From contig CAWICY010000004.1 in NCBI GenBank assembly GCA_963834845.1, positions 2,649,530-2,713,529 on the forward strand: a stretch of 64,000 bases of DNA. Direction: 5' to 3'. The DNA comes from an uncultured Pseudomonadota bacterium. Its GTDB lineage: Bacteria > Pseudomonadota > Gammaproteobacteria > Burkholderiales > SG8-39. Numbering within the stretch: position 1 is the stretch's first letter; every line of letters starts with the position of its first letter. The position numbers and the translations under genes were made by a program. Positions 101-30,574 of the stretch are shown here, one piece after another. The notes under the pieces were generated by a model. That model saw nothing but the letters and a program-made list of their open reading frames with translations. It was not told where the DNA came from and did no database searches.

Positions 101-468
101 GCATGTCGCAGGAACAGGAAATTCTCGCGCTCGAAGACGTGCGCTTCAAGGCGATGGTGTCGGGGGACGTCGGGCTGCTCGACGGATTGCTGCACCAGGA
201 TCTGATCTACACGCACTCGTCGGCCGTGGTCGACACGAAGGCGAGCTATCTCGAGGCGATTAGGAGCGGGAAGACGCGCTACACGTCGCAGAAGCGCTTC
301 GAGGAGCGCGTGCGACTGTGCGGCGACTGCGCGCTGGTCACCGGACGTGCCGAGATGGAAGCGGAGGTGAATGGCGTACGCAAGACACTGCGGCTGCGCT
401 ACCTCGACGTGTGGACGAAGACGCCGCAGGGCTGGAAGTTCGTCGCCTGGCAGTCGACCGGAATCTAG
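91..468 (+). CDS. NTF2-like / SnoaL-DUF4440 family small protein
   Basis: 125-aa ORF with the typical DUF4440 layout (LEDVRFKAMVSGDVGLLDGLL...W.KTPQGWKFVAWQST). Start may be ATG 103 instead of 91. Its stop overlaps the convergent gene in CTAG (465-468). Confidence 0.7.
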   Translation: MGVSMSQEQEILALEDVRFKAMVSGDVGLLDGLLHQDLIYTHSSAVVDTKASYLEAIRSGKTRYTSQKRFEERVRLCGDCALVTGRAEMEAEVNGVRKTLRLRYLDVWTKTPQGWKFVAWQSTGI

Positions 469-1637
469 GCCTGGTGGCCTTCCTCCCACGGCGGCAACAG
501 GCTTGCCAGGATCCATAGAACGACAAACGGGCCTGTCAACAGGAGGAGGGAGGTGAGCGCTCCCTCGCGCCCCAGGAATTCGGCCTGGAACGTCAACAGT
601 CCTTTCATCGTCTTCGACAACTCCTCCCCGCCAATAACCACGTTCCACCGCATCGCCAGCACGGCGATTAGCAGCAATACGGCCGCAGCGGTGAGCCAGA
701 CAACGAGCTTCCTGCCCTGCGTTCTTAAGGCGATCAAGGCCGTCAGCACCGCGAACGCCACGACAGAACCGAGAGCCTGAATCAGCAGGCCAGGCCACAG
801 GGGCCCCTTGATTAGCTGCAGGATCGTGTCGATGCCTTCCCTCCCTCGGTAGAACATCTCGACGTACTCCAATGCCTCAACCACGATTACCACCGTCAGG
901 AACGCCCACATGACGTTGGCAAGCCCCCTCAGGCAGTCGTCTTCCAGCTCGACCCGGCGCAGCTTCCAGACGACCACGTAGAGAACCACCAGCAGCGCGA
1001 CGCCCGAGACGATGGCGGAGAGCAGAAAGATGATCGGCATCAGGTCCGACGACCACCATTCGCGCGATTTCAGCGAACCGAAGATGAACCCGACATATCC
1101 GTGCAGGCCCGCGGCGGAGGGAATGCCGATGATCGCCAGCGCGCGCGCCCATTTGTGGTCATAGGCGAGGGCGGTGGGCGATACGTCGTCCGAGCCCAGC
1201 GTCAGGGCACGGTAGAACAGGCGCAGCGGACCTCGGGCGCTCTTGGAACTGGCTACGATGTCGGGCCGGAAGGCGAACCAGACCTCGAGCACGAGGATGA
1301 CCAGATAGAAGCCTGCGACGTAGCCGAAAGCTGCCATCGCCGAGGTCCAGTGCGGGGTGATCACGGCGTTGAACGCCCGCTCCGGTCGCCCGAGGTGGAA
1401 CAGCAGCGGGGTGGGCGCAAACAGCAGGAAGCACAACGCGGTCAGTAGCGCAAAGCGGGCGATCGGCCGGAACTGGCGCATGCCGAACACGTGATAGAAG
1501 CTGGAGACGATGAAGGCGCCAGCGACCAGGCCGGTGATGTACGGGTAAATAACGATCAGCTCGCCCCAGGGGATGTCGGTCTCGTTGGGATAGACATAGC
1601 CGACGTAGGGCGCGGCATGTGCAAAGAGCCCGTCCAT
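465..1637 (-). CDS. NrfD/PsrC/DsrP-type integral membrane quinone-interacting subunit
   Basis: About 390 aa and highly hydrophobic, multi-TM, resembling the polysulfide reductase NrfD family. Real start taken at MDGLFAHAAPYVGYVYPNE (ATG 1637), which overlaps the stop of the upstream FeS gene. The longer 460-aa ORF N-terminus is Arg-rich junk. Confidence 0.85.
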   Translation of the reverse strand: MDGLFAHAAPYVGYVYPNETDIPWGELIVIYPYITGLVAGAFIVSSFYHVFGMRQFRPIARFALLTALCFLLFAPTPLLFHLGRPERAFNAVITPHWTSAMAAFGYVAGFYLVILVLEVWFAFRPDIVASSKSARGPLRLFYRALTLGSDDVSPTALAYDHKWARALAIIGIPSAAGLHGYVGFIFGSLKSREWWSSDLMPIIFLLSAIVSGVALLVVLYVVVWKLRRVELEDDCLRGLANVMWAFLTVVIVVEALEYVEMFYRGREGIDTILQLIKGPLWPGLLIQALGSVVAFAVLTALIALRTQGRKLVVWLTAAAVLLLIAVLAMRWNVVIGGEELSKTMKGLLTFQAEFLGREGALTSLLLLTGPFVVLWILASLLPPWEEGHQA

Positions 1638-2479
1638 CACGACACCTCGCGGTCGATTCCGGCGTAGAAGACGTGCGGCCCGTTTCCCGTCTCGGGCTTG
1701 AGCACCTGGACCCGATTGTCGCGGACAAACTGATTGATCTCTGATGCGGCGTCGTTCAGGTCGCCGAACACCCTGCAGTGAGTCGGGCAGACTTCGACGC
1801 AGGCAGGGTTGAGCCCCTTGGTAATGCGGTGATAGCACCAGGTGCACTTATCGGCGACCCCTTTTTGGTGGTCGATGTACCTGGCGCCATAGGGGCAGGC
1901 CTGTATGCAGTACTGGCATCCGATGCAGTAGGCCTGGTCGATCAGTACCACGCCGTCCTTCGCCTTGTAGCTCGCACCGGTTGGGCACACCTGAACGCAC
2001 GGTGGGTGCTCGCACTGGTTGCAAAGCTTCGGCACGAAGTACGCCTTGGCGACTTTCGCGTTACGGTACCGGTCGTCGAAGCGGTAGTCACCGCCCGTTC
2101 CCGAGGCGGCGATATTTTGTGGATCGGACTGACTGTCGATTCTCGGGCGCGCTTCGCCCTCCAAGTAGACGTAACGCTCCACCCAGGTGCGGAAGTGGTT
2201 GGCATCCCGTACCACGTCGTTCTCGATCTTGCAGGCTTCGTCGCAACGCAGACAGCCGATGCACCGACCGATATCGATGCCGAATGCCCAACGGTGCTTG
2301 GTCCAGTCATAGCCTGGTATGGGAGGGCTGGCTGCCGACTGGGCGCCTGCAGCCGCGGCTTCACCCAGCACCGTGTGCGCCGCGACCGCGGTGCCCGCGA
2401 ATGCGATGGCACCTCCGAGAATGCGCAGAAAGTCGCGGCGTTCCTGCTGGGGCGTCGCGGGTTTCTTTTCGTCGTCCAT
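1637..2479 (-). CDS. Tat-exported 4x[4Fe-4S] ferredoxin-like subunit (NrfC/PsrB/DsrO/HybA type)
   Basis: Starts MDDEKKPATPQQERRDFLRILGG (twin-arginine signal). Four Cys clusters: CIGCLRCDEAC, CNQCEHPPCVQVCP, CIGCQYCIQACP, CTWC...CVEVCP. The rest of the 571-aa ORF upstream is out-of-gene readthrough. Confidence 0.9.
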   Translation of the reverse strand: MDDEKKPATPQQERRDFLRILGGAIAFAGTAVAAHTVLGEAAAAGAQSAASPPIPGYDWTKHRWAFGIDIGRCIGCLRCDEACKIENDVVRDANHFRTWVERYVYLEGEARPRIDSQSDPQNIAASGTGGDYRFDDRYRNAKVAKAYFVPKLCNQCEHPPCVQVCPTGASYKAKDGVVLIDQAYCIGCQYCIQACPYGARYIDHQKGVADKCTWCYHRITKGLNPACVEVCPTHCRVFGDLNDAASEINQFVRDNRVQVLKPETGNGPHVFYAGIDREVS

Positions 2480-2517
2480 TTTCAATGCTCCTTGCCGCAC
2501 TTGCGCCGCGGTGCGTC

Positions 2518-3555
2518 TCACCTGCAACCAGCGTTGGCGAAATACTCCCCCGCGATCGCGGCATCCGCGTCGCTCAGTCCCTTCGCGATACCCGCCATGA
2601 TGGCGTTCTTGCGACCACCGCCCTTGTAAGCCCGCAATGCGTTGAGCAGGTAGTCCTTGGACTGCCCGGCGAGATTGGGCCACAGCGGGTTGACGCTGAC
2701 CCCGCTCGCGCCATGGCAGGCGGCACAGTTGGACGCCGTCGTTTGACCGGCGCTGGCCGCTTGCTTCCCGGCATCCGCGGAGCGCTTGCAGCTCAGGCCG
2801 GCGAAATATGCCGCGAGATCTTCGACATCTGAGTCGCTCAGGCCCTTCGCCAACGGGCCCATCATGGGGTTGTCGCGCGCCCCGGTCCGGTATCCCTTGA
2901 GCGCGTCGACGAGATACGCCTCCTTTTGTCCCGCGAGGTTGGGCCCGGGGAGATTCACGCTGTTGCCCTGCGCGCCATGGCACGCGGCGCAGGTCGCCGC
3001 CTTCGCTTTTCCCGCCGCAACGTCGCCCGGACGCGCATTCGGCGCGGCCGCGCCGATCAGGAGCTTGGGCGAATGCGGATTGTGGCAAGTCATGCATTGT
3101 TGCGTCCCCGCGTGGGTGGCGACCACGATCTGGCGTTGCGCCACGGGCCTCGCCGCGATCTTTTCGTGACAACGCGTGCACAGCTCCGTCGTGTCGGTCG
3201 GCACCATCAGCTTCACGTTGTCCGGGTGATCCGGGCCGGTCGCCGAACGCCGGAACATGCCCCGCATGTCCCGGCGGCCGGCCGCGCCATGGCAGACCTC
3301 GCATTTGACGACCTTGCCGATGGCCGCGCTGTTGTGCACGCCCCGCGACCATTCAGCGTAGCGCTCGGCATGGCATTGCTGGCACGACTGCGGGTTCTTG
3401 TACTTGGGCTTGTCCGAGGCGATTTCCGCTACCGAGTCACCCCGGTAGTGGCCGTAACGGTAAAACGAGGCGGGAGTGAAAAGAATCTTGGCCGCGTAGG
3501 CAGCCGTTCCAAGGGCGCCCACGAGCAGGATGAGTCGAACGATGTGTTTCGGCAT
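2518..3555 (-). CDS. Membrane-anchored hexahaem c-type cytochrome (N-terminal tetrahaem module fused to two c4-like domains)
   Basis: N-terminal TM helix ([22 protein letters not shown]). Six CXXCH motifs: CQQCH, CEVCH, CTRCH, CMTCH, CAACH, CAACH. The last two lie in repeated c4-type domains (GPNLAGQ / WPNLAGQ, with Met-containing NPMMGP / NAIMAGI). Confidence 0.9.
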
Positions 3556-3597
3556 GCTGCTCAGATGATGGCGCAGGCGCCAATTACCCGGAGGACC

Positions 3598-4203
3598 TCA
3601 CTTAGCCGGAGCGACGCTTTGATTGAACATATAGACGATGGCGCTGCGGATCTCCGGGTCGGTGAGATCGGCCATGCCGCCGCGCGGAGGCATCCCTCCA
3701 TGCCCCTTGATCGCGGAGCGAACCACCGCGTCAAGCCCTTGCTTCGCTCGCGGTATCCATGCCGAGCGATCGCCGATCCTGGGCGCTCCGTCGACCCCCG
3801 TCTCGTGGCACTTGAAGCATTGCGTGCGCACGATCTGCTCGCCGCTGCGGTCGGCGGCAGGCGGCGCGGCCTTGTCGATGGGTTCGGCCCAATGGCCCCC
3901 CGACTGATTGACCATGTAGGTAATCGCGAGCTCGAGTTCGAAATCGGTGACGCCCGGACTGCCACCATGCGCAGGCATTTGCCGGATGCCCTTGATCGCA
4001 TGCTGAGTGAGGCTGGTAAGCCCCTGCGAGGCGCGAGGTTTCCACGCGCTTTGATCGCCGATTTTCGGCGCGCCGTTTGCGCCCGTCGCGTGACACGCGG
4101 TGCAGACCGCATCGACCACTTCCTTCCCATTGCGCCCGGTGGCCTCGGCATCGGGTTGCACGGCGATCTGGGCCGCGAGAGCAAGCATGGCGCCGATTGC
4201 CAT
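3598..4203 (-). CDS. Dihaem cytochrome c5-like periplasmic cytochrome
   Basis: Two repeats of CxxCH-x3-GAPKIGD/GAPRIGD-x-SAW-x-PRA...MPxxGG (CTACH, CFKCH). Signal-like start at MAIGAMLALAAQIAV (ATG 4203); the ORF extends to 4266. Confidence 0.85.
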   Translation of the reverse strand: MAIGAMLALAAQIAVQPDAEATGRNGKEVVDAVCTACHATGANGAPKIGDQSAWKPRASQGLTSLTQHAIKGIRQMPAHGGSPGVTDFELELAITYMVNQSGGHWAEPIDKAAPPAADRSGEQIVRTQCFKCHETGVDGAPRIGDRSAWIPRAKQGLDAVVRSAIKGHGGMPPRGGMADLTDPEIRSAIVYMFNQSVAPAK

Positions 4204-4543
4204 CTTCGTCGCGGGCCGGCATGACGTCACCTGCCTCGCTGTCTCTGTTTCGCCTCCCCTCGACATTGCAATCCTCTCCGAATCCGGTTACGTAGCATCG
4301 CCAGCATCTACGCGGCTAATAGAAGACGCGATTTCGGAAGAACTTGTTTTGATGCCAGTCAATGGCACACCGAGTATTCGGTTCTTGTGTCAGAGAATTG
4401 CTCTCATTTGCTGGCTGGGCCGCGGGGCCAGGATCGACGGCTGCGACAGCGACCGTCGCCAGACGGAAATTGCGCAATAACGGGCACCCGCACGATTCCG
4501 AGGGCGGATACTTTCCCTATGAAGTGTTTGCTGCAAAAGAATA

Positions 4544-4564
4544 TGACGTCAGTCTGACGTCAGT
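4544..4564. promoter_or_regulatory. Tandem direct repeat TGACGTCAGT-c-TGACGTCAGT (each copy contains the palindrome TGACGTCA) in the divergent cytochrome intergenic region
   Basis: Read directly at 4544-4553 and 4555-4564, about 100 bp upstream of the Cyc2-like start. It is followed by an AT-rich stretch with TTGATctagCTTAA (4576-4589). Function is inferred only. Confidence 0.35.
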
Positions 4565-4662
4565 AATTATTTATCTTGATCTAGCTTAAAGCAGCGCTGG
4601 TTGCCGGCCTGCAGACTCGCCTCGGGGCACGTGGGATTCAATCCATTCCAAGGGAGATCGTT

Positions 4663-6018
4663 ATGCGGCAAGGCAAGCTGACAACTTTCATCATGGCGCT
4701 CGCGGTGGCAAGCGGTGGCCTGCTGCTCCTGCCGGGAAGCGCCCAGGCGGTGCCAAGCTTCGCCAGGCAGACGGGCATGGCCTGCGAAGCCTGCCACACG
4801 GTTTTTCCGGAGCTGACGCCTTTCGGCCGGCGCTTCAAGCTGAACGCGTACACCATCGACAACCTGCCGCAGGTGAGCGGCATGACACCGAACAAGGAGC
4901 AGACGCTGCTGCTGAACCAGCTGCCGCCGCTGTCATTCATGTTTCAGGCCTCGGTGACCAATACCAAAACAGCCGTCCCGGACTCGGCAGTGGTAGGCGA
5001 GAACGCGCAGAACGGCCAGGTGCAGTTCCCGCAGCAGGCGAGCCTGTTCTACGCCGGAAGGATCGCACCGAACCTAGGGGCGTTCGTACAGATGACCTAC
5101 GATGGCACTGAGGGCCAATTCGGCTGGGACAACACGGACATCCGCTACGCGAGCAATGCGAGCGACAAGTTCCTGTGGGGCGTGAGCTTCAACAACAACC
5201 CGACGGTGCAGGACGTGTGGAACAGCACGACCGCATGGCAGGTGCCGTTCGACCAGCGTAGCGCCACCGCGCCGACGCCCGGCGCGGTCACCATGATCGA
5301 CGGCGGCCTGGCCGATGCGGGCGTGGCCGGGTTAAGTATCTATGGTTACTGGAACAACTCGATCTACGCTGAGCTCGGCGTGTACAAGTCGGCGCCCGCT
5401 GCGGCGCAGATCGACAGCACCAGCACGAACGTCGTCAAAGGGGTCGCCCCCTACTGGCGCCTCGCCTACGAGCGCCAATGGCAGCGGAACTCGTGGATGT
5501 TCGGCGCCTACGGCGTGAACGCCAAGCTGTACCCGGGTGACGGTGCTGCGCTCTCAGGCCCGGCCAACAAGTTCAGCGACTGGGCGCTGGATACGCAATA
5601 CCAGTATATCGGCGACGATCACCTGTTCTCGGTCATGGCGACCTACATCGACGAGAAGCAGAACTGGGACGCGGGCGGCTCGGCCAATCCTTCCGATACG
5701 CTGAAGACAACCAGGATCGGCGGGCATTACTTCTACCAGCGGAAATACGGCGTGGCGCTGGGGTACTTTTCGACCACCGGCAGCGAGGATGCCGGGCTGT
5801 ACCAGCAGGTCGATCCGGTGACCGGCTTCGCCAATAACAAGCCCAACAGCAACGGCTGGGTTGGCGAGCTCGATTGGGTGCCCTACCAGAACACCAAGAT
5901 TGCGCTGCAGTACACGGTGTACAACAAGTTCAACGGCGGCGGCAGCAACTACGACGGCAACAACCGGAGCGCCTCCGACAACAACACCCTCTACCTCCTC
6001 GGCTGGCTCAACTTCTAG
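4663..6018 (+). CDS. Cyc2-like fused monoheme cytochrome c-porin (outer-membrane beta-barrel with N-terminal CXXCH)
   Basis: RBS AAGGGAG. Sec signal ...LLPGSAQA|VPSF. A single CXXCH (CEACH) sits in PSFARQTGMACEACHTVFPELTPFGRRFKLN. The remaining ~400 aa is Gly/Tyr/Asn-rich with an alternating pattern and ends YLLGWLNF (OMP C-terminal Phe signature). Confidence 0.75.
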   Translation: MRQGKLTTFIMALAVASGGLLLLPGSAQAVPSFARQTGMACEACHTVFPELTPFGRRFKLNAYTIDNLPQVSGMTPNKEQTLLLNQLPPLSFMFQASVTNTKTAVPDSAVVGENAQNGQVQFPQQASLFYAGRIAPNLGAFVQMTYDGTEGQFGWDNTDIRYASNASDKFLWGVSFNNNPTVQDVWNSTTAWQVPFDQRSATAPTPGAVTMIDGGLADAGVAGLSIYGYWNNSIYAELGVYKSAPAAAQIDSTSTNVVKGVAPYWRLAYERQWQRNSWMFGAYGVNAKLYPGDGAALSGPANKFSDWALDTQYQYIGDDHLFSVMATYIDEKQNWDAGGSANPSDTLKTTRIGGHYFYQRKYGVALGYFSTTGSEDAGLYQQVDPVTGFANNKPNSNGWVGELDWVPYQNTKIALQYTVYNKFNGGGSNYDGNNRSASDNNTLYLLGWLNF

Positions 6019-6028
6019 GCGAACGACG

Positions 6029-6637
6029 ATGAAAACGATCATTGCACTTGCAACAGGCGCCCTGCTCGCGGCCGGCATGACAGCCGCGGTGGCGCAGAGC
6101 GATCAGGATGCGTCCGCGCTCGCCAAGGGCGTGTGCTCCGCCTGCCACGGACCGGAGGGCCACAGCGTATCGCCGGTATTTCCCCACCTCGCCGGGCAGC
6201 AGGCGGCCTACATCACCCTGCAGCTCGACGCATTCCGCGGTCACCTGCGCGGCGACCCGAATGCCCAGGCGTACATGTGGGGCATGGCCTCGCAGCTGAG
6301 TGACGCCACGATCAAGGCCCTGTCGGATTACTATGCTGCGCAGAAACCGGCACCGGGCAGGGCGGGCGACCCGAAGCTCATGGCGGAAGGGGAGAAGATC
6401 TACGCCCAAGGGATTCCGGGGAAGAAGGTGCAGGCCTGTGCGACCTGCCATGGCCCGAACGCCGAGGGGGCGACCGCGTTCCCGCGGCTCGCCGGGCAGC
6501 ACGTCGAGTACCTGATCGCGCAACTCGAGGGCTTCAAGTCGGGGACCCGCGCGAACGCGCCGATCATGTTGGGGGTGGTGCGTGGCATGACCTCGGAGCA
6601 GCTGAAAGCGGCGGCGACCTACGCCGCCTCGAGATAG
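6029..6637 (+). CDS. Dihaem cytochrome c4 (Cyc1-like periplasmic cytochrome)
   Basis: MKTIIALATGALLAAGMTAAVA signal. Two haem motifs (CSACH, CATCH), each followed by FPxLAGQ...Y...QL..F, as in c4 family cytochromes. Confidence 0.9.
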   Translation: MKTIIALATGALLAAGMTAAVAQSDQDASALAKGVCSACHGPEGHSVSPVFPHLAGQQAAYITLQLDAFRGHLRGDPNAQAYMWGMASQLSDATIKALSDYYAAQKPAPGRAGDPKLMAEGEKIYAQGIPGKKVQACATCHGPNAEGATAFPRLAGQHVEYLIAQLEGFKSGTRANAPIMLGVVRGMTSEQLKAAATYAASR

Positions 6638-6735
6638 CGGCACACTTGCAACTCGCGGGGCGGAGGCGCAATCTCCCCGGGGCTCGTTCCCGTGCGCTTC
6701 CTCCTCGTCCCTTTTTCAGATCGGATAGCGAAGAA

Positions 6736-7281
6736 ATGCGGATAGCACTCCCGCTACTCGTTTCCCTTGCGCTCGCCGGCGCCCCTGCGGCGCGGGCGGC
6801 GGAGCCGGACAATGCGACGCTGCAGCAGGAAGTGAACGCGCTGAAAGCGGTGGTGCATGACCTGCAGCAGCGCATGAACGTGCTGGAAGGGCGATCGCCG
6901 GCGGCGGCGCAGACCGCGCCAGTGCCGCAGGCCGCGCCCGCGTCTCAGGCCGCGCCCGCAGTACCTCAGGCCGCGCCAATGCCACAGGCCGCGCCCGCAG
7001 CGCCTCAGCCGCAGGCCGCGCCGGTCGCGGCGGCTCCGCCCGCGGCGAGCGCCGGCTACGTGAGCCCGGAGGCGGCACTCAGGGCGAACTGGTCGAAGGT
7101 GAACGCCAAGATGGATCAGGATGATGTAACGCGGCTTCTCGGCGCGCCGTCGAAGAAGTTCATGCTCGACGGCAGGAACGTCTGGTATTACTACTATCCG
7201 GGAACCGGCGGCGGCTCGGTGTTCTTCACTGACGTCGGGCGCGTAACGAGCAGCCAGTCGCCTTTCGGCTGGAGCTGGTAG
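6736..7281 (+). CDS. Secreted protein: coiled-coil, Pro/Ala/Gln repeat, C-terminal SmpA/OmlA (BamE-like) domain
   Basis: Signal MRIALPLLVSLALAGAPAARA|AEP. Heptad-like LQQEVNALKAVVHDLQQRMNVLE. PQAAPA repeats. C-terminus is DDVTRLLGAPSKKF...VWYYYYPG....VFF. Confidence 0.6.
   Translation: MRIALPLLVSLALAGAPAARAAEPDNATLQQEVNALKAVVHDLQQRMNVLEGRSPAAAQTAPVPQAAPASQAAPAVPQAAPMPQAAPAAPQPQAAPVAAAPPAASAGYVSPEAALRANWSKVNAKMDQDDVTRLLGAPSKKFMLDGRNVWYYYYPGTGGGSVFFTDVGRVTSSQSPFGWSW
6919..7026 (+). repeat. Imperfect in-frame tandem repeat (five copies of CAGGCCGCGCC with 18-27 nt period) encoding (V/A)PQAAPA
   Basis: CAGGCCGCGCC read at 6928, 6946, 6967, 6985 and 7012. It is a coding low-complexity repeat inside CDS 6736-7281. 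Confidence 0.8.
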
Positions 7282-7290
7282 CGGCGGCGC

Positions 7291-8220
7291 TCAGGTGCGC
7301 GCGCCGAGCAGCGGGTTGAGCCCGCTGCGCGTGACGCGCCCGTTGAGTTCGCGCCCGAGCGCGCGCTCACACAATTCGGCGGTCGCGAGCAGGCCGTCGA
7401 GGTCGATGCCGGTGGCCACGCCCATCGACTCGAGCAGGTTCACCAGGTCCTCGGTGCACACGTTGCCGGTGTAGCCGGCGCCGTACTTCACTTTCGCCGG
7501 GTGCCCGCCGACCCCGCCGAACGACGCATCGAAGTGGCGCACGCCGGCTTCGAGCGCGGCGACTGCGTTGACGAGGCCGGTGCCGCGCGTGTCGTGGAAG
7601 TGGGCGATCGGGGTCAATCCCGCGATGTGCGCCAGCCGCCCGCACATGTCCTTCACCGAGCGCGGCGTGGCCATCCCCGTGGTGTCGCCGAGCGCAACGT
7701 GATCGACGCCGAGCGCGGCGAAGCGCGCTGCGTCCTCGGCGACGACGCCGGCATCGACCTGGCCCTCGAACGGGCAGCCGAAGGCCACCGACACGGTACC
7801 GACCAGGCGGAAGTGCCCGCGCGCCGCGCGCGCCATCCGCTCGACGTTGGCCCACTGCTCGGCGCGCGTGCGGTTCAGGTTCTTCCGTGTGTGCGATTCG
7901 GTCGCCGAGACCAGCAGGCTGATCTCGTTCGCGCCGTGGCCGGCCTCGAGGTCGGCGAGCGCGCGCGCGACCGCGCGCGGGTTGGCGCAGGTCGCCTTGT
8001 ACCAGGTCCCCGGGCGGCGCGAGAGCGAGGCGAGCAGCTCGCTCGCGTCGGCGAACTGCGGCACGACCTCGGGATTGGAGTAGGAGGTCGCCTCGACGCG
8101 CGCGAAGCCGAGCGCGGCGAAGCGCTCGACGAGCGCGCGCTTGACGGCGGTCGGCACGAACTGCGGCTCGTGCTGCAGACCGTCGCGCGCGAAGCATTCG
8201 CAGATGACGACTGCTGCCAT
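7291..8220 (-). CDS. Hydroxymethylglutaryl-CoA lyase family (HMGL-like) protein
   Basis: 309 aa. N-terminus ICECFARDGLQHE, ...EATSYSNPEVVPQ..., ...HFHDTRGTGLVNAVAALEAGV..FDASFGGVGG.P: canonical HMGL-like TIM-barrel motifs. Confidence 0.9.
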   Translation of the reverse strand: MAAVVICECFARDGLQHEPQFVPTAVKRALVERFAALGFARVEATSYSNPEVVPQFADASELLASLSRRPGTWYKATCANPRAVARALADLEAGHGANEISLLVSATESHTRKNLNRTRAEQWANVERMARAARGHFRLVGTVSVAFGCPFEGQVDAGVVAEDAARFAALGVDHVALGDTTGMATPRSVKDMCGRLAHIAGLTPIAHFHDTRGTGLVNAVAALEAGVRHFDASFGGVGGHPAKVKYGAGYTGNVCTEDLVNLLESMGVATGIDLDGLLATAELCERALGRELNGRVTRSGLNPLLGART

Positions 8221-8273: not shown

Positions 8274-9017
8274 TTGCGGAGGCACCAAGTGGCAGCGAAC
8301 CCCATCGACCTGCGGCAATTCCCCTACGTCGCCGGCGCGCCCGACGAGCCGACGCAGCCGCTGCGCGTGGTGCCCGGCTACAGGGAAACGGCCTGGCGCA
8401 ACCCGGCGCAGCCGCTCGTCAAGCGGCCGGCGACGCTCTCCGAGCTTACCGGTCCGCTCGAGCCGGCGCGGCGCCTGAGCCTGCTCGGCCACGACCTCGC
8501 CGGTCACGGAGAGCAGCGCGCCATCGGCCAGCTCATGCACCTGCGTGTGCGCGTGCTGGACGAGGACGGCAGCCCGGTGAGCGGCGCGCTGGTGGAGATC
8601 TGGCACGCGAACGGGGCCGGCCGCTACATCCATCCGAACGACGACGATCACGCGCCGGTCGATCCGAACTTCTACGGCGCGGCGCGCCTGCTGACCGACG
8701 AAAGCGGCGCCTTCGAGCTGCGCACCATCAAGCCCGGCGCCTATCCGGTGCCCAACTCGGGCGGCTGGTGGCGGCCGCCGCACATCCACTTCTCGCTGTT
8801 CGGCAAGATCTGGCTGTCGCGCCTGGTGACGCAGATGTATTTCCCGGACGACCCGCTGAACCCGCAGGACCGCATCCTCAATGCGCCGCCGAGCGCCGAG
8901 GCGCGCGCGCGGCTCATCGCGCGCATGCTGCCGCCGAGCGAGGGGCCGGCGGACGCGCTCGTCTTCGAGCACCAGATCGTGCTGCGCGGCCGCCGGGCCA
9001 CGCCGGCGCAGCCCTGA
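8274..9017 (+). CDS. pcaH: Protocatechuate 3,4-dioxygenase beta subunit-like intradiol dioxygenase
   Basis: LSELTGP..., VRVLDEDGSPVSGALVEIWHANGAGRYIHP.D, RTIKPGAYP......WRPPHIHFSLF, TQMYFPDDPLN: PcaH signature. Start (TTG 8274 vs GTG 8289) is uncertain. Confidence 0.88.
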   Translation: MRRHQVAANPIDLRQFPYVAGAPDEPTQPLRVVPGYRETAWRNPAQPLVKRPATLSELTGPLEPARRLSLLGHDLAGHGEQRAIGQLMHLRVRVLDEDGSPVSGALVEIWHANGAGRYIHPNDDDHAPVDPNFYGAARLLTDESGAFELRTIKPGAYPVPNSGGWWRPPHIHFSLFGKIWLSRLVTQMYFPDDPLNPQDRILNAPPSAEARARLIARMLPPSEGPADALVFEHQIVLRGRRATPAQP

Positions 9018-9030
9018 AAGGGGAGCCGCA

Positions 9031-9588
9031 ATGACTCTTGTCCCCACCGCATCGGCGACCACCGGGCCGTTCTTCCCGCCGCGCTACATCGACGCCGGTT
9101 GCAACGACCTCACGAGGTTCGAGGGCCGCGCGGCGCGTGGCGAGCCGATCGAGATCCACGGCCGCGTGCTGCAGGAGGACGGCAGCCCGCTTAACAACCT
9201 GATCGTCGAGATCTGGCAGACCGACGCCGGCGGCGTGTTCCGTCATCCCGGCGATCCGCGCATGCAGGAAGCAGACCCGGATTTCTTCGGCTGGGGACGC
9301 ACCACCACCGACCCCGACGGCGTGTATCGTTTTCGCAGCGTGCTGCCGGGCGCGCGCCCGCCGCGCGCGCGGCACGTCAACTTCCAGCTCATGTTTTCGG
9401 GGCTGATGCGCATGCTGCCGACGGTGATGTATTTCGAGGGCCAGGCGGACAACGACGCCGATCCGGTGCTCGCCGCGGTGCCCGCGGCGCGCCGCGCGCT
9501 GCTGGTGGCGAAGCGCGAGGCCGCCGGCCGCTATCGCTTCGACATCCGCCTGCGCGGCGAGGGCGAAACGCCGTTCTTCGATCTCTGA
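9031..9588 (+). CDS. pcaG: Protocatechuate 3,4-dioxygenase alpha subunit-like
   Basis: MTLVPTASATTGPFFPP..., IEIHGRVLQEDGSPLNNLIVEIWQTDAGGVFRHP, HVNFQLMFSGLMRMLPTVMYFEG. Lies 13 nt after pcaH. Confidence 0.88.
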   Translation: MTLVPTASATTGPFFPPRYIDAGCNDLTRFEGRAARGEPIEIHGRVLQEDGSPLNNLIVEIWQTDAGGVFRHPGDPRMQEADPDFFGWGRTTTDPDGVYRFRSVLPGARPPRARHVNFQLMFSGLMRMLPTVMYFEGQADNDADPVLAAVPAARRALLVAKREAAGRYRFDIRLRGEGETPFFDL

Positions 9589-21654: not shown

Positions 21655-22647
21655 TCAGCGCACCACTACACCCCAGGGCTTCTCCCCGACCGATACGTCC
21701 CGCAGCCGCTCGTTCTTTTCGGTGTCGATCACCGACACCGAGTTCGAACGGCCATTCGCGACGTAGAGCTTCTTCGCGTCGGGTGTCAGCGCCATGTTCC
21801 AGGGGCGCTTCCCGACCGGGATCGTGGCAATGATCGCATTCGAAGCGGTGTCGATCACCGATACCGTAGCATCGCCGCCGTTCGATACGTACACCCATTT
21901 GCCGCTGGGGTGCACGGCGATGCCATTGCAGCGCACCCCCGCCTTGATGCGCGTGATGACCTTGAAATTCACCGCGTCGAGCACGTAGACATGGTTGGCG
22001 TTCTCGGCGGCAACGTAGGCGCGGCTGCCGTCGGGCAGGAAGCCGATGCCGCGCGGTCGCGCGCCGACAGGCACCTGGGCGATCTCCTTGCGTTGGCCGA
22101 CGTCGATGATGTCGACCGCTTCGCCTTCCTCGGCGCTGACGAACACGAGCCGCCCATTCGGGCTGAATACCGCGTGCTCGGGGTTCTTGCCGCGCACCTT
22201 GACGACGAAGGCCTTGCGGTTGTCGCGGGTATCGACGAATGCGACGTCGTTGCTTTCCTCGATCGCCGCAGCGACCCAGCGCCCATCCGGAGACATCCCC
22301 ACGCCTTCGGGCGATTCGCCCAGCGGCACGGACGCGGCTTCCCGACGGGTGCTCAAGTCGATCAGCACGAGGCGATTGTTGGGTTGGTCGCTCACGTACA
22401 GCCAGCGGGCGTCGAGGCTTACTGCGGTGCCGCGGGGCTTCTTGCCGGCGGCCAGCTCTGCGACCACCGCGTCGGTCCCGGTATCGATGATGGATACGGT
22501 GCCGGAGCCCTCGTTGGGCACATAGGCATATGGCGCCGCGAGGAGCGTATGCGGCAGCACCCACACGAGCGCGCACAGGAACCGCGCGAGCGAGATGGCG
22601 CGACGCAAGACGCGGCTAATCTCTTGCACCGGCGGCGCGCAGCGCAT
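21655..22647 (-). CDS. YVTN-family beta-propeller repeat protein (resembles the PQQ-dependent-catabolism-associated propeller family)
   Basis: Repeated ~40-aa units (YVPNEGSGTVSIIDT, LYVSDQPNNRLVLIDL, VYVSNGGDATVSVIDT, LYVANGRSNSVSVIDT). Signal-like FLCALVWVLPHTLLAA. Start ambiguous (ATG 22668/22647 or TTG 22608). Confidence 0.82.
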   Translation of the reverse strand: MRCAPPVQEISRVLRRAISLARFLCALVWVLPHTLLAAPYAYVPNEGSGTVSIIDTGTDAVVAELAAGKKPRGTAVSLDARWLYVSDQPNNRLVLIDLSTRREAASVPLGESPEGVGMSPDGRWVAAAIEESNDVAFVDTRDNRKAFVVKVRGKNPEHAVFSPNGRLVFVSAEEGEAVDIIDVGQRKEIAQVPVGARPRGIGFLPDGSRAYVAAENANHVYVLDAVNFKVITRIKAGVRCNGIAVHPSGKWVYVSNGGDATVSVIDTASNAIIATIPVGKRPWNMALTPDAKKLYVANGRSNSVSVIDTEKNERLRDVSVGEKPWGVVVR

Positions 22648-23275
22648 CGATGGTCTCGCGGTTGCCATTGTCGATCGCCATGGACAGAGCGGTCTTGCCG
22701 CGGTTGTCGCGCTTCGCCGCGTCAGCTCCCCGCAGCAGCAGCAGCTTCACAGTGGCGGCTTGGCCGTATCCGGCGGCCCACATCAGCGCGGTCAGTTCGT
22801 TGCTGTATGCAGTGTTGACATCGACGCCGGCGTCCAGCAAAGCGGCGAGGCAGTCTGCGTGGCCGGTGCCCGCGGCGTAGATGGCGGCGGTCTTCTTGAC
22901 CCGATCGGCCAGCATCGGGTCGGCCTTGCGCGCGAGCAGCATGCGCACGATCTCCGCGTGCCCGTTGTAGGCCGCGCTCATGAGCGGCGAAACGCCAGCG
23001 GCATTCTGCAAGTTAACATCCGCGCCGCGCTCGAGCATGAGCTTCACGATCTCGGCCTTGCCGTTCTTGGCGGCCGTGTTCAGCGGGGTGTCGCCGATGC
23101 GATTGCGCGAGTCGGGATTCGCGCCCTGCTCGAGCAGCGCAGTTGCGCTGGCCACGCTGCCGGAACGCACAGCCACCAGCAGTTCCGCATTGACGTTTTG
23201 GAGTCCGGCCTGGCCCCAAGAATTGCAGGCCACCAACAGCAGCCCGACGATCCCCAGCGGTCTGATTACTTGCAT
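22616..23275 (-). CDS. Ankyrin-repeat lipoprotein (exported)
   Basis: MQVIRPLGIVGLLLVAC has a lipobox (LVAC). At least five ANK repeats follow (G.TPLN.AAKNGKAEIVKLMLERGADVN, G.SPLMSAAYNGHAEIVRMLL, LTALMWAAGYGQAATVKLLLLRGAD...). Confidence 0.85.
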   Translation of the reverse strand: MQVIRPLGIVGLLLVACNSWGQAGLQNVNAELLVAVRSGSVASATALLEQGANPDSRNRIGDTPLNTAAKNGKAEIVKLMLERGADVNLQNAAGVSPLMSAAYNGHAEIVRMLLARKADPMLADRVKKTAAIYAAGTGHADCLAALLDAGVDVNTAYSNELTALMWAAGYGQAATVKLLLLRGADAAKRDNRGKTALSMAIDNGNRETIDALRAAGARD

Positions 23276-23563
23276 TTGCCTTACGCTCCGAGCACTATTC
23301 GAAGCCGAGAGGAGCGTGAACCCGCTCGATCGGCTCATTTTCGAGGTACGCTGCGACGCACGGCCCGCTTTCGCTCAAGGTCGGCATGAGCGTCGCCGGC
23401 GCGGTTCAATGCATTTTCCAATGCTTCTCATATAGAGTAACAAAAAAACAAGAGCCGTTAACGATTACTTGGTCGCTTGGCCGCGGCTGGGTCTTTGGTC
23501 AAGCGTGAGGTGTTGGCAGGATCGCAAAACAAGCGAAACAGAAACTACGCGAGGGAGACATCC

Positions 23564-25285
23564 ATGTTCAGGGAACGCAAGACGCTTCTCATTCGGGCCG
23601 GCGCGGCCGCTGCCTTGATGGCGGCAGCGGGCGTGGTCGGCGCGCAGAAGATTCAGGCTCAAAAAGCGGGGCCCGGCACCAGCGCGATCAAGAGCGTCAA
23701 TGTCAGCCAGGCGATGCTCAATGGTTCCGACAAGCAGGACAAGAACTGGCTCCAGACCAACGGTGGCTACGCCCAGACGCGCTACTACACCGGGTCGCAG
23801 ATCAATACCGGCAACGTGAAGAAGCTGAAACCGGCATTCGTTTTCCAGACCGAGGTGGTGGAATCGATGGAGACGGCGCCGATCGTCGTCGACGGCGTCA
23901 TGTACCTGACCACCTCGTTCGATCACGTGTACGCCGCCGACGCGGTGACGGGCAAGGAGCTCTGGCACTACAAGCACAAGATGGGGCCGATCACCACATT
24001 CTGCTGCGGCCCGAACAACCGCGGCGTGGCGATCTCCGGTGGAGCGCTTTACCTCGGGACGCTCGATGCGAAGCTGGTGTCGCTCGACGCCAAGACCGGC
24101 AAGGTCCTGTGGGAAACGCAGATCGCCGATCCGGAGAAGGGCTATAGCGAGACGATGGCTCCGACGGTCGTCGACGGCAAGGTGCTGATCGGCACCAACG
24201 GCGGCGAGTACGGCATCCGCGGATTCGTGAAGGCCTATGACGCGGCCGACGGCAAGCTGCTCTGGACCTTCCACACCATCCCCGAAAAGGGGCACGAGGG
24301 CGCGTGGGCGGTCAACGATGCGACGGGCCGCAACATGCACCGCGATATCGCGGCGGAAAAGGCCGCGTTCGAGAAGGACAGCTCGTTCTATCAGACCCTC
24401 GGTGGCGGCGTGTGGATGAACCCTTCGGTCGACCTCAAGACCCGCACCATCTTCTTCGTCGTCGGCAACCCGTCGCCCGACCTGTATGGCGCGATTCGTC
24501 CTGGGGATAACCTGTACACCGACTCCATCGTGGCCGTCGATCTGGACAAGGGGACCTACAAGTGGCACTCCCAGTACGTCCCGCACGACGTGTGGGATCT
24601 CGATGCCGTCAGCGCCACGATGCTGATCGACGTCAAGGACAAGTCGGGCAAGATGGTTCCGGCCGTGATTCATGGCGGCAAGACCGGCCACGTGTACATC
24701 CACAACCGCGAAAGCGGAAAGCTGATCCGGTTCTCGCAGGCGATGATCCCGCAGGAGAATATGTGGGTGCTGCCGACTCCGGAGGGTGCGCGCATGCTGC
24801 CCGGCGCCAATGGCGGCGTGGAATGGTCGCCGATGGCGTTCAGCCCGAAGACCAGGCTCGTCTATGCGCTGAACCTGCACCAGCCGATGACTTACCACGT
24901 CGAGGCCTCCCCCTACCCGGGCGGGAAGCTCTGGCTCGGCGGCGCGTTCAAGACCATACCGACCGAGAAGCAGTGGGGCCGCGTCGCGGCGGTGAGCGTC
25001 GACTCGGGCAAGGTGGTCTGGAAGCATGACACCGAGCAGCCGCTTATCGGCGGCGGATTGGCGACGGCGGGCGGATTGTTCTTCTTCGGCGAGGGCAACG
25101 GCAATTTCAACGCCCTTGACGCGAAGACCGGCAAGAAGCTCTGGAGCTTCAACTGCGGCGCCGGCGCCAACGCGATGCCCGTGTCCTACATGGTCGGGGG
25201 CAAGCAGTACATCGCCATGGGCTGCGGTGGCAATACCCAGCTCAACTTCAAGCGCGGCAACAGCGTCTTCGTTTTCGCGCTCTAA
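23564..25285 (+). CDS. PQQ-dependent alcohol dehydrogenase (methanol/ethanol family quinoprotein), D-x-D lanthanide-type signature
   Basis: GAGGGAGA RBS and a signal peptide. Propeller W-motifs. Vicinal disulfide FCCGPNNRG. Active-site region [11 protein letters not shown] (WDLD at 24593-24604). No C-terminal haem domain. Confidence 0.92.
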
Positions 25286-25305
25286 CCAAAGCGCAGCAGC
25301 ATGGC

Positions 25306-25336
25306 GAGGCCGCCTTCGGGCGGCCTCGTTCGTTTT
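25306..25336 (+). terminator. Stem-loop GAGGCCGCC-TTCG-GGCGGCCTC followed by GTTCGTTTTA (intrinsic terminator or attenuator after the PQQ-ADH gene)
   Basis: A perfect 9-bp GC stem with a TTCG tetraloop at 25306-25327, then a T-rich tail. Lies 21 nt after the ADH stop. Confidence 0.6.
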
Positions 25337-25939
25337 ATGGAAGGAGGAATTCATTTGCGGCTTCGCACTACATGGTTCTTGGTGGGAATGTCGTTCGCGC
25401 TCGTGAGCGGGCGTGCGCAGTGCCAGGATATCGATGCCGGGGCGCGCAAGGCGGAGGTATGCATCCCCTGCCATGGCGTCAACGGCAACTCGACCAACCA
25501 CCAGTTTCCGATACTTGCCGGACAGACCGCGCGCTACATCTATCTGCAGCTCAAGGATTTCAAGGAGGGGCGCCGCAGGGACCCGTCGATGGATCCGATG
25601 GCGGCCAAGCTCTCGCGCGAGGACATGTTCGACCTGGCCGCGTTCTTTTCCGCGCAGAAGCGACTACCGACCCCATTCAATTCCGACCCCGCCAAAGCAG
25701 CCAAGGGCAAGGCCAAGGCGGATGAAACGCTTTGCACCATGTGTCACCTCGGCGGCTTCATGGGGCAAAACGAGATTCCGCGGGTTGCGGGGCAGCACTA
25801 CGAGTACATCGTCAAGCAGCTCGGGAATTTCAAGGCCCGTCGACGCACGAACGACGCAGGCAACATGACGAGCGTCGCGAACACTCTGTCCGACGACGAC
25901 ATCGAGAATCTTGCGAACTATTTGGCAGGATTGCAGTAG
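25337..25939 (+). CDS. Dihaem cytochrome c4-like protein (probable electron acceptor of the PQQ dehydrogenase)
   Basis: CIPCHG...FPILAGQ.ARYIYLQLKDF and CTMCH...IPRVAGQHYEYIVKQLGNF. Best start may be TTG 25355 (AAGGAGG RBS, giving signal RLRTTWFLVGMSFALVSGRAQC). The ORF-track start 25301 would include the terminator hairpin. Confidence 0.85.
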   Translation: MEGGIHLRLRTTWFLVGMSFALVSGRAQCQDIDAGARKAEVCIPCHGVNGNSTNHQFPILAGQTARYIYLQLKDFKEGRRRDPSMDPMAAKLSREDMFDLAAFFSAQKRLPTPFNSDPAKAAKGKAKADETLCTMCHLGGFMGQNEIPRVAGQHYEYIVKQLGNFKARRRTNDAGNMTSVANTLSDDDIENLANYLAGLQ

Positions 25940-28220: not shown

Positions 28221-28231
28221 GCGGCGGGGCG

Positions 28232-28249
28232 GCCGGACTGAAGTCCGGC
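28232..28249. terminator. Perfect hairpin GCCGGACT-GA-AGTCCGGC between the convergent TBDR and cytochrome b561 genes
   Basis: Read directly, 11 nt after the TBDR stop. There is no U-tract on either strand, so termination activity is uncertain. Confidence 0.4.
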
Positions 28250-28265
28250 TCGAAGGCATCGCGCC

Positions 28266-28622
28266 CTAAGGCAATCCGGGCATCCTTGAGCGCGCGCTTG
28301 GCCACATCCGCTGCAGAACCGCGTCGCGATCGACGAGTGCGTGCTTCAGCGCGGCATGCAGCCACTTCGCGGCACGTGCCTCCCACCGCGGCATGGTGCC
28401 AGGAAACGGAGGCGCCGGATGTAGGGCGCGCCACCAGAGTCTGATGAGTATGATGACTCCTGCGGTGACGCTGATCGACTTGTGCAAGTTGATGACGATA
28501 CTGCGCTCGGGCACGCCGCTTGGCACGCCACCGAGGTACCAGCCGAATGCAATCTGGAACAACACCAGGCCAGCGACGATCCAATGCAGGGCGATCGCCG
28601 TGCGGGTGTATCGATTTTCCAT
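28266..28622 (-). CDS. Cytochrome b561 family protein, apparently C-terminally truncated (possible gene remnant)
   Basis: MENRYTRTAIALHWIVAGLVLFQIAFGW...INLHKSISVTAGVIILIRLWWR....P.....P.WEARAAKWLHAAL matches the first ~2.5 helices of CybB/YceJ-type b561. The sequence then becomes non-hydrophobic and stops at 118 aa; family members are typically ~175-190 aa. Confidence 0.6.
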   Translation of the reverse strand: MENRYTRTAIALHWIVAGLVLFQIAFGWYLGGVPSGVPERSIVINLHKSISVTAGVIILIRLWWRALHPAPPFPGTMPRWEARAAKWLHAALKHALVDRDAVLQRMWPSARSRMPGLP

Positions 28623-28650
28623 GCCGCTTACGGCTTTCCGCGAGCGGCGC

Positions 28651-28971
28651 TTATTTCGGCGGCGTCACGGTCACCTTGATGCTCGAATACCACTCCGAGA
28701 CATTGTCGATGTCGGCATCGGTGAGCGGCTTCGCGATGATGCTCATCTGGTCATTCCGGCGGCTGCCGGAGCGAAAGGCCCTGAGCTGCGCCACGAGGTA
28801 TTCCTTCTGCTGGCCACTGAGGTTGGCGGCGCCGGGCAGGACCGCGACGCCGTCCGCGCCGTGGCAGTTCTGGCACAGGGTCTGCACCATCGGCGGCGCC
28901 TCGCCCCCAGCTCGTGCCTGGACCGGCGACAGGAAGGCGGCGAGTACGAACGCCGTGCAAATGATACGCAT
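28651..28971 (-). CDS. Monohaem class I cytochrome c
   Basis: Signal MRIICTAFVLAAFLSPVQA. CQNCHG....LPGAANLSGQQKEYLVAQLRAFRSG.R.ND.MS (c4-half/c553-like). Confidence 0.85.
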   Translation of the reverse strand: MRIICTAFVLAAFLSPVQARAGGEAPPMVQTLCQNCHGADGVAVLPGAANLSGQQKEYLVAQLRAFRSGSRRNDQMSIIAKPLTDADIDNVSEWYSSIKVTVTPPK

Positions 28972-28980
28972 TTGTCTTCG

Positions 28981-29017
28981 GGGAGAAAAAGATGGGCCGG
29001 GCGCCGGGCCCGGCCCA
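28981..29017 (-). terminator. Rho-independent terminator after the sorbosone-dehydrogenase-like gene
   Basis: On the minus strand: UGGGCCGGGC-ccggc-GCCCGGCCCA (10-bp stem, 28993-29017) followed by UCUUUUUCUCCCC. Confidence 0.6.
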
Positions 29018-29032
29018 GTCTAGTCTGCCCCG

Positions 29033-30325: not shown

Positions 30326-30379
30326 GATTCCTCTCCCTTTCCTTATGTGATCCGCTGTCGCCCCTGGGGCAACTCCTGC

Positions 30380-30399
30380 CTGGATCGGTGTCGATCCAG
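30380..30399. promoter_or_regulatory. Perfect inverted repeat CTGGATCG-gtgt-CGATCCAG upstream of the sorbosone-dehydrogenase-like gene
   Basis: Read directly, 55 nt upstream of start 30325 in the divergent intergenic region shared with the acyl-CoA dehydrogenase gene. Could be an operator or a 5'-UTR hairpin. Confidence 0.3.
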
Positions 30400-30574
30400 C
30401 GCCGTTCGTTCGATTGGGGCGAGCCATGCTCCTCCCCTTGTTGCGTGCCCGTCAAGCGACGGATCGAACGTTGCCGGCCCACTGTCGTCCCACCCGCGTC
30501 CAACTCGCTTCCCACTGCAACCGTTTGCCGCAGCGCGTTAGACTGAGCGCGGTTTATCCCGGTATCCGACTACG

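Follow-up and report, generated by a model that had tools for sequence, protein, structure and literature searches.

Background

Cyc2, an outer-membrane porin fused to a monohaem cytochrome, is the most widely used genetic marker of microbial iron oxidation. As defined by Keffer et al. 2021 (PMC8406198), the family has a signal peptide, one CXXCH haem-binding motif, a length of at least 365 aa and a 16-strand porin; CXXCH is preceded by the motif AXPXFAR[Q/K][T/Y], termed unique to Cyc2, and followed at a distance of four residues by PXL. According to the mechanism given in the literature, dissolved Fe2+ enters the pore, the haem lies on the periplasmic side, and Cyc1 is seen as carrying electrons from Cyc2 to the inner membrane. 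Fe(II) oxidase activity has been shown for one Cyc2 per cluster (three characterised proteins). Here, we describe a cyc2-like gene and its surroundings in a stretch of 64,000 nucleotides (nt) of an uncultured Pseudomonadota bacterium of the Burkholderiales (contig CAWICY010000004.1, positions 2,649,530 to 2,713,529); this whole stretch is called the window below.

The Cyc2 protein of Acidithiobacillus ferrooxidans, encoded in the rus operon and belonging to Cluster 2, is a biochemically shown Fe(II) oxidase. By published description, Cyc2PV-1 of Mariprofundus ferrooxydans and the Cyc2 proteins of Gallionellaceae have the same architecture, signature motif and proposed mechanism as the window protein; they are Cluster 1 proteins of neutrophilic iron oxidisers, whereas the window Cyc2 appears to fall in another cluster. 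An iron-oxidase function is assigned with most confidence to Cluster 1 and with less to the Cluster 2 type. Cluster 2 cyc2 genes, with cyc1, are also carried by heterotrophic Burkholderiales (such as Leptothrix-Sphaerotilus, Ralstonia, and Caballeronia), the same type of organism and the same gene pair as described here. The family, its motif, its occurrence in Burkholderiales and in other organisms that are not recognised iron oxidisers, and its association with Cyc1 have all been published, and excess sequences from Burkholderia, Ralstonia and Xanthomonas were removed from the published Cyc2 tree (Keffer et al. 2021, PMC8406198). The role of Cluster 2 and Cluster 3 homologues in heterotrophs is an acknowledged question in the literature, where any function that Cluster 2 proteins may have outside the known iron oxidisers is treated as unverified, and homologues far from the characterised Cyc2 proteins are considered to need verification (Keffer et al. 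2021, PMC8406198).

Results and discussion

Signature, homologues and family membership

The product of the cyc2-like gene (Table 1) is almost certainly a member of the Cyc2 family. The published signature is matched exactly (AVPSFARQT ... CEACH-TVF-PEL), and the length of 451 aa lies well above the minimum of 365 aa. In a BLASTP comparison with an Acidithiobacillus rus-operon Cyc2, residues 5-451 of the window protein aligned with residues 9-512 at 33% identity (E value 6e-66, against a cut-off of 1e-5 in the pipeline of Keffer et al.); the reference is the Cyc2 of the A. ferruginosus pCF3-2 rus operon, an orthologue and not the assayed A. ferrooxidans protein itself. It was reached through a rusticyanin sequence, which was confirmed against the PDB (1CUR/1RCY, 350 bits) and then used as a query for Acidithiobacillus rus operons. 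The operon on pCF3-2 (locus L005 in our numbering) encodes a rusticyanin 100% identical to the PDB sequence and has the gene order cyc2, cyc1, an open reading frame (ORF), coxB, coxA, coxC, a short interval without an ORF of at least 120 aa, and rus. The rusticyanin genes are plasmid-borne both here and in A. ferrianus p1MG (L008), with cyc2 located ~5-7 kb upstream in each.

The N-terminus of the window protein, read by eye from the sequence (MRQGKLTTFIMALAVASGGLLLLPGSAQA followed by VPSF), contains the n, h and c regions and the AXA site of a Sec signal, and the same signal region and site are aligned in the relatives. CEACH (C41-H45), which begins at residue 12 of the mature protein, is the sole CXXCH and accounts for both cysteines of the protein. 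Three residues separate AVPSFARQT from C41, a spacing equal to that in Acidithiobacillus Cyc2, and the stretch H45-TVF-P49-E-L51 places PXL from the fourth residue after the haem motif. The protein ends in YLLGWLNF, a putative outer-membrane beta-signal, and the C-terminal residue is aromatic in all 120 close homologues and in 115 of 132 distant ones. An earlier note, made by reading the sequence without database searches, had claimed the Sec signal cleaved after AQA, the single CXXCH twelve residues into the mature protein and the terminal phenylalanine of an outer-membrane beta-signal, and had proposed Cyc2-family membership on this basis; each of these claims was borne out, the last by the exact signature, the length, the end-to-end alignment, the predicted 16-strand barrel, the invariant haem motif and the Cyc1 neighbour described below. 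The gene is preceded by a GGGAG Shine-Dalgarno sequence (4652-4656), which, as well as the ATG, is conserved in the relatives.

Among 8000 scored sequences, 5816 were homologous to the window Cyc2 at an E value of at most 1e-3, and a search of clusters at 50% identity gave 3398, 439 of these at E<=1e-30; such numbers far exceed chance. An exact-sequence look-up returned no record for the window Cyc2, nor for the hexahaem protein of the divergent operon. The records are named "cytochrome C" and come from Burkholderiales, Usitatibacter and metagenome-assembled genomes of Xanthomonadaceae. The closest relatives (up to 85% identity) are metagenomic sequences, whereas the copies found in cultured organisms are only 30-47% identical and reside on secondary replicons of Ralstonia solanacearum, Caballeronia, Paraburkholderia, Ideonella, Acidiphilium, and Methylocystis; in heterotrophic Burkholderiales, the NCBI labels of the gene pair are merely "cytochrome C" and "c-type cytochrome". 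One N-terminal CXXCH, and no more, is present in each of the 252 full-length homologues examined. In an alignment of 56 diverse members, including Acidithiobacillus Cyc2, the residues Q36, C41, C44, H45, L51, G55, and F58 never vary, and P49 is kept by at least 90% of the sequences. Of the three outcomes that the earlier note had named as refuting its proposal (no significant match to Cyc2, a predicted structure other than a beta-barrel, and a CXXCH not conserved among the closest homologues), none was obtained, the first being checked by BLASTP. The window Cyc2 matched no Pfam or NCBIfam family and no PDB sequence; the silent Pfam scan agrees with the literature, according to which Cyc2 has no Pfam model.

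In one of the more distant relatives, that of Caballeronia sp. SBC1 (L105, 5049-6257; WP_206366205.1), the RefSeq coding sequence begins 48 nt past the start of the tblastn match, which is at residue 30 of the window protein. As annotated, the gene has probably lost its signal peptide together with some or all of the Cyc2 signature and haem region, and mis-called starts of this kind could conceal Cyc2 homologues from motif-based screens.

The likeness to the A. ferrooxidans-type Cyc2 extends over the whole protein. Both have a signal peptide, a single haem motif and a near-identical cytochrome region (AVPSFARQTGMACEACHTVFPELTPFGRRFKL versus ALPSFARQTGWSCAACHTSYPQLTPMGRMFKL); the barrels are collinear to the last residue and share the loop motif NN.PT..D.WN.T..WQ.PF. 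In both cases a gene for a dihaem cytochrome c4 (Cyc1) follows directly 3'. The window protein differs in being ~35-60 residues shorter, owing to loop deletions, and in its host, a high-GC, apparently neutrophilic heterotroph. In a neutrophilic host, the Fe(II)/Fe(III) couple and hence the haem potential needed would be far from those at pH 2.

Table 1. Features of the cyc2 locus and of the adjacent divergent operon (positions in the window)
Feature	Position	Strand	Description and basis
cyc2-like gene	4663..6018	+	451-aa fused monohaem cytochrome c and predicted 16-strand outer-membrane porin; ORF, homology
Sec signal peptide	4663..4749	+	residues 1-29, predicted cleavage after AQA; read from sequence, relatives align
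Cyc2 signature region	4747..4815	+	AVPSFARQT residues 29-37, CEACH 41-45 (nt 4783-4797), PEL 49-51
Beta-barrel porin domain	4927..6015	+	residues 89-451, ends in YLLGWLNF; AlphaFold2, Foldseek
Most conserved barrel segment NNNPTVQDVWNSTTAWQVPFDQ	5191..5256	+	residues 177-198; invariant or near-invariant alignment columns, DSSP of model
cyc1-like gene	6029..6637	+	202-aa periplasmic dihaem cytochrome c4; starts 10 nt past cyc2 stop
Third cassette gene	6736..7281	+	181-aa secreted protein, true start 6736; conserved order, weak Pfam BamE match
FNR-type box TTGATGCCAGTCAA	4349..4362		1 mismatch; ~83-90 nt upstream of the minus-strand dihaem cytochrome gene; putative function
Degenerate FNR/CRP-type box TTGATCTAGCTTAA	4576..4589		2 mismatches; 87 nt before cyc2 ATG; putative function
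Divergent four-gene operon	465..4266	-	Pfam and NCBIfam matches; neighbour of cyc2, not a demonstrated partner
Dihaem cytochrome c	3598-4266	-	divergent operon
Membrane-anchored hexahaem cytochrome, 345 aa	2518-3555	-	divergent operon; NapC/NrfH-like tetrahaem part fused to c4-like dihaem part
Twin-arginine (TAT) signal 4Fe-4S protein	~1637-2500	-	divergent operon; DsrO/TtrB-like, just under NCBIfam cut-offs
NrfD/DsrP-like membrane subunit	465-1640	-	divergent operon

Predicted structure

An AlphaFold2 model of the window Cyc2, calculated with 47 sequences as input, reached a mean predicted local distance difference test score (pLDDT) of 68.9 and a predicted template modelling score (pTM) of 0.74. 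As assigned by DSSP, it contains 16 long strands over residues ~90-450; within the barrel (residues 89-451), pLDDT is ~70-88 in most 10-residue blocks and falls below 50 in the loop 181-197. A Foldseek search of the PDB with this model returned only 16-strand general porins (Omp-Pst1/2, OmpF, OmpT, and BpsOmp38) with a probability of 1.0 and a target TM score of ~0.6. The model thus agrees with the beta-barrel that the earlier note had read from the composition of the protein. The general porins have in common with the predicted structure the barrel fold, the number of strands and the long loop after strand 5, although they share just 9-14% identity with it and lack a haem domain; Cyc2 adds the N-terminal cytochrome and a loop motif of its own.

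This motif is the most conserved segment of the barrel (consensus NNNPTVQDxWNxTxAWQxPF) and lies in the long loop between strands 5 and 6. By analogy with 16-strand porins, the loop would occupy the position of the constriction loop L3, and it is a candidate for lining the pore or for docking the haem domain.

The MtoAB, PioAB and MtrAB systems also combine an outer-membrane barrel with c-type haem for electron transfer across the outer membrane. However, they are two-protein complexes with a 26-strand barrel and a separate decahaem wire that is able to contact solids, whereas the window Cyc2 is a single polypeptide with 16 predicted strands and one haem motif.

The cyc2-cyc1 module

The cyc1-like gene directly after cyc2 encodes a protein with two Cytochrom_C domains (Pfam) that is 42% identical to the rus-operon Cyc1 (E value 2e-45); its best PDB match is 1H1O (8e-39), deposited as cytochrome c-552, which we take to be the A. 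ferrooxidans Cyc1/CYC41. Using a closer alignment (A1), we found 84 related cyc2 loci at 49-87% identity, 66 of which have enough downstream sequence to contain cyc1. A cyc1 homologue lies immediately 3' of cyc2 in all of these except one (65/66), an arrangement also seen at the head of the rus operon. None of coxBACD, cup/AcoP and rusticyanin was found in the ORFs of the window that were covered by inspection or by a Pfam scan. Lacking genes for the oxidase, the cupredoxin and rusticyanin, the locus amounts to a cyc2-cyc1 module rather than a rus operon.

The pair is followed by a third gene, and the order cyc2-cyc1-third gene is kept on four contigs with close homologues (L001-L004). Its product, probably an envelope accessory, has a signal peptide and a coiled coil, which a Pro/Ala-rich linker joins to a small domain at the C-terminus resembling BamE/SmpA_OmlA. 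The gene was detected after cyc2-cyc1 in 17 of the 53 loci with room for it, mostly those of closer relatives, and has just 140 database homologues at E<=1e-3; among the 120 of these homologues listed, PF04355 (BamE/SmpA_OmlA) is precomputed for eight. The top Foldseek match of its AlphaFold2 model is BamE (5d0o_E) with a non-significant E value of 0.11. We considered the third gene as a counterpart of the third gene of the rus operon (cup/AcoP), with which it shows no similarity, so the two are unrelated. The gene after the cassette is convergent (7291-8220, minus strand).

The genes that recur next to the related cyc2 loci encode HemN (8 loci), a high-potential iron-sulfur protein (HiPIP; 7 loci), and FixL-like and FixJ-like proteins. 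The HiPIP, which has a TAT signal, is a feature of the more distant relatives: it is encoded directly 3' of cyc1 in L046, L069, and L077, near the pair in L065, L083, L087, and L104, and also beside the pair on plasmid pSBC1_3 of Caballeronia sp. SBC1 (L105, 3915-4226). The recurrence recalls the HiPIP Iro of Acidithiobacillus. In the examined part of the window, no HiPIP gene was noticed.

Upstream region and candidate regulation

The window was scanned for the FNR-type consensus TTGAT-N4-ATCAA. The box TTGATGCCAGTCAA is the only match with at most one mismatch in the 64 kb and is located in the divergent intergenic region of cyc2. Closer to cyc2, the degenerate box TTGATCTAGCTTAA aligns with a one-mismatch box, TTGATATAGCTCAA, at an equal distance from the ATG in the related locus L028. 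In the related loci, boxes with at most one mismatch are present upstream of cyc2 in 16 of 75 regions, compared with 0.24 expected from shuffled sequences (shuffle maximum 3), and perfect boxes in 7 of 75, compared with 0.005 expected. Together with the HemN and FixLJ-like neighbours, the boxes suggest low-oxygen control in part of the clade. A scan of 4200-7500 for sigma-70 promoters gave no match, and among the papers listed by a literature search none contained both cyc2 and Fnr.

A broader proposal, which we consider rather unlikely as a whole, is that the Cluster 2 cyc2-cyc1 pair in a clade of heterotrophic, high-GC, Burkholderiales-like soil bacteria belongs to an FNR/FixK-type low-oxygen regulon and has acquired a dedicated envelope accessory, the coiled-coil protein with the BamE-like domain. 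If it were true, ordinary soil heterotrophs would widely possess, under regulation, micro-oxic or nitrate-coupled Fe(II) oxidation or an unrecognised form of electron exchange with the exterior, and such a trait would not be a speciality of lithotrophic iron oxidisers.

The upstream region also contains a tandem palindrome, TGACGTCAGTCTGACGTCAG (4544-4565), ~100 nt before the cyc2 ATG, which appeared in the terminator scan as a stem-loop on both strands. The sequence TGACGTCA recurs at ~4222-4229, within the start of the divergent gene. A regulator may bind the palindrome; no conservation of it is visible where the upstream regions of the relatives are aligned.

Proposed mechanism and alternative readings

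By analogy with the characterised systems, we propose the following mechanism, which we regard as reasonably probable in full, including Fe(II) as the physiological donor. The polypeptide, consisting of a monohaem c domain of ~60 N-terminal residues fused to a 16-strand porin, would be exported by the Sec pathway, and BamA would insert the porin into the outer membrane by way of the C-terminal beta-signal. Dissolved Fe2+, or another small reductant, would enter the pore and reduce the single haem, placed at the periplasmic mouth of the barrel or within it. From the haem, the electron would pass to the co-transcribed periplasmic dihaem cytochrome c4, the Cyc1 homologue, and then to an acceptor in the inner membrane that is encoded elsewhere and is most likely a terminal oxidase. 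The small coiled-coil protein with the BamE-like domain, which follows the pair in the clade, would assist in the envelope, and the operon seems to be part of a low-oxygen (FNR-type) regulon. A heterotroph could draw additional energy from the module or use it to detoxify Fe(II), instead of living lithoautotrophically. The caution of the earlier note, which had worded its proposal as a protein that may oxidise Fe(II) or another extracellular donor, is apt, the function being read from homology to a characterised enzyme of an acidophile.

Several points weigh against this mechanism. The assignment to Cluster 2 (McAllister/Keffer) was made by pairwise identity and not by a tree with Cluster 1 and Cluster 3 references. 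It is drawn from the 33% identity to the A. ferrooxidans type, a value typical of the identities inside the A. ferrooxidans group (26.7-35.2%; A. ferrooxidans, Ferrovum, Dechloromonas, GJ-E10, and Thiomonas) and above the published ~17-23% between Cluster 1 Cyc2 and this group, together with the literature on Burkholderiales, in which only Cluster 2 cyc2 is reported for the heterotrophic Leptothrix-Sphaerotilus. In the structural model, pLDDT is below 50 for the N-terminal residues 16-88 and ~30 for the haem domain, as expected for a haem domain modelled without haem, and the placement of this domain relative to the barrel is not fixed. The family alignment shows no conserved Met or second His as a distal haem ligand; K59 (conserved in 96%) and several conserved Tyr residues carry no conclusion on the ligand. 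The FNR-type box proximal to cyc2 in the window has two mismatches. Finally, no terminal oxidase, rusticyanin or carbon-fixation gene is present among the window ORFs inspected or scanned with Pfam, and the functions encoded in the window are those of a heterotroph (acyl-CoA metabolism, a pyrroloquinoline quinone (PQQ) dehydrogenase, TonB receptors, and a ring-cleavage dioxygenase).

The heterotrophic surroundings also speak for a Cyc2-family protein that does not have iron as its physiological substrate. Together with Cyc1, it would take up electrons from, or sense, another small extracellular reductant (Mn(II), Cu(I), sulfur species, or humics and quinones in reduced form, for example), or it would only detoxify Fe(II) or prevent Fenton chemistry, with no conservation of energy. 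Homologues in plant pathogens and soil heterotrophs that are not known as iron oxidisers, such as Ralstonia solanacearum, Caballeronia, Paraburkholderia, and Methylocystis, point the same way, and the literature explicitly leaves room for other functions. Nevertheless, all three characterised members of the family oxidise Fe(II), the cyc2-cyc1 pairing of the energy-conserving pathway of A. ferrooxidans is strictly kept, and HiPIP, another high-potential carrier, recurs nearby in related loci; we consider this explanation the less probable one.

The FNR-type boxes upstream of many relatives and the HemN and FixL/J-like neighbours, which suggest low-oxygen induction, could alternatively reflect an outward flow of electrons under O2 limitation, in which Cyc1 and the Cyc2-like porin would connect the respiratory chain with extracellular acceptors, for example humics or Fe(III) chelates. 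A homologue is present in Acidiphilium, a genus that the literature lists with the heterotrophic acidophiles reported as Fe(III) reducers. However, Keffer et al. 2021 (PMC8406198) give a high measured potential for Cyc2PV-1, +208 mV. A small soluble donor would suit a single haem that is recessed in a narrow pore. Moreover, c4 cytochromes and HiPIP are high-potential carriers that feed oxidases, which counts against an outward flow. Low-oxygen induction would be equally expected for Fe(II) oxidation at neutral pH, since Fe(II) persists only where oxygen is scarce. Electron export is thus very unlikely, and inward transfer of electrons from Fe(II) to Cyc1 is the reading that we prefer.

GC content and the question of foreign origin

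The earlier note had contrasted a GC content of about 62% in cyc2 with about 77% in the neighbouring cytochrome operon, from counts of single 60-nt lines. The first value is correct (62.7%), and the second is not: the neighbouring genes range from 62% to 68%, with 67.7% in cyc1, 65.3% and 65.9% in the other adjacent cytochrome genes, 62.0% in the iron-sulfur (FeS) protein gene and 62.8% in the NrfD gene, at a window mean of 69.3%. Single 60-nt lines of 77-80% GC occur in all these genes, including cyc2. By codon position, the GC content of cyc2 is 0.56 at the first, 0.46 at the second and 0.87 at the third position (GC3), the GC3 of the neighbouring genes being 0.76-0.93. The lower GC content of cyc2 is therefore due to the first two codon positions, that is, to a porin-type composition rich in N, S, T, Y, and D, and the hint that it marks something special about the gene did not survive.

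A recent acquisition of cyc2 as a foreign gene or island, possibly non-functional in the host, might have been suspected from the difference between 62.7% and the window mean, and from the rus-type operons and cyc2 copies that lie on plasmids and near mobile elements in other taxa. With a GC3 as in host genes and a deficit confined to codon positions 1 and 2, however, the low GC content gives no evidence of foreign origin. In addition, the reading frame is intact, the ribosome-binding site and start are conserved, the three-gene cassette recurs in relatives (49-87% identity) with differing flanks, and no mobile-element gene was found among the window ORFs inspected or scanned with Pfam. A recent foreign origin is accordingly very improbable.

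Divergent operon and other genes of the window

The four genes transcribed divergently from cyc2 encode no catalytic subunit and look like a quinone-interacting module, a cytochrome c:quinone oxidoreductase. This operon was considered as a conserved partner of cyc2 and rejected, as the FeS and NrfD genes are present in none of the 84 related loci; "hexahaem" matches at these loci are cross-matches of the c4-like domain to cyc1. The hexahaem protein is common independently of cyc2 in Bradyrhizobium, Xanthobacteraceae, and Burkholderiales (3288 matches). On both counts, the linkage of the operon to cyc2 looks incidental.

Further downstream, two adjoining ORFs at 8274-9588 resemble by eye the beta and alpha subunits of an intradiol (protocatechuate 3,4-) dioxygenase and are followed by a MarR-like regulator, as would fit a heterotroph that degrades aromatic compounds. 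Like cyc2, the stretch 21655-30427 combines a lower GC content (0.60-0.66) with host-like GC3. It is a periplasmic oxidation cluster unrelated to the cyc2 locus, with genes for a PQQ-dependent dehydrogenase and, after it, a cytochrome c, as well as for a beta-propeller protein, an ankyrin-repeat protein, two TonB-dependent receptors, a cytochrome b561, and a glucose/sorbosone dehydrogenase-like protein.

Conclusions

Thousands of cyc2 genes are known in soil bacteria of this type, and the gene of the window is an ordinary one in that sense. The locus contains nothing new in kind; it cleanly illustrates the cyc2-cyc1 module of a heterotroph, to which the BamE-like third gene and the enrichment of FNR-type boxes make small, modest additions. 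It nevertheless offers three testable handles on the role of the family in such bacteria: the near-obligate linkage of cyc2 and cyc1, the clade-specific third gene, and the FNR-type sites that predict low-oxygen induction. If confirmed, these handles would help to settle whether Fe(II) oxidation at oxic-anoxic interfaces is in part the work of soil heterotrophs.

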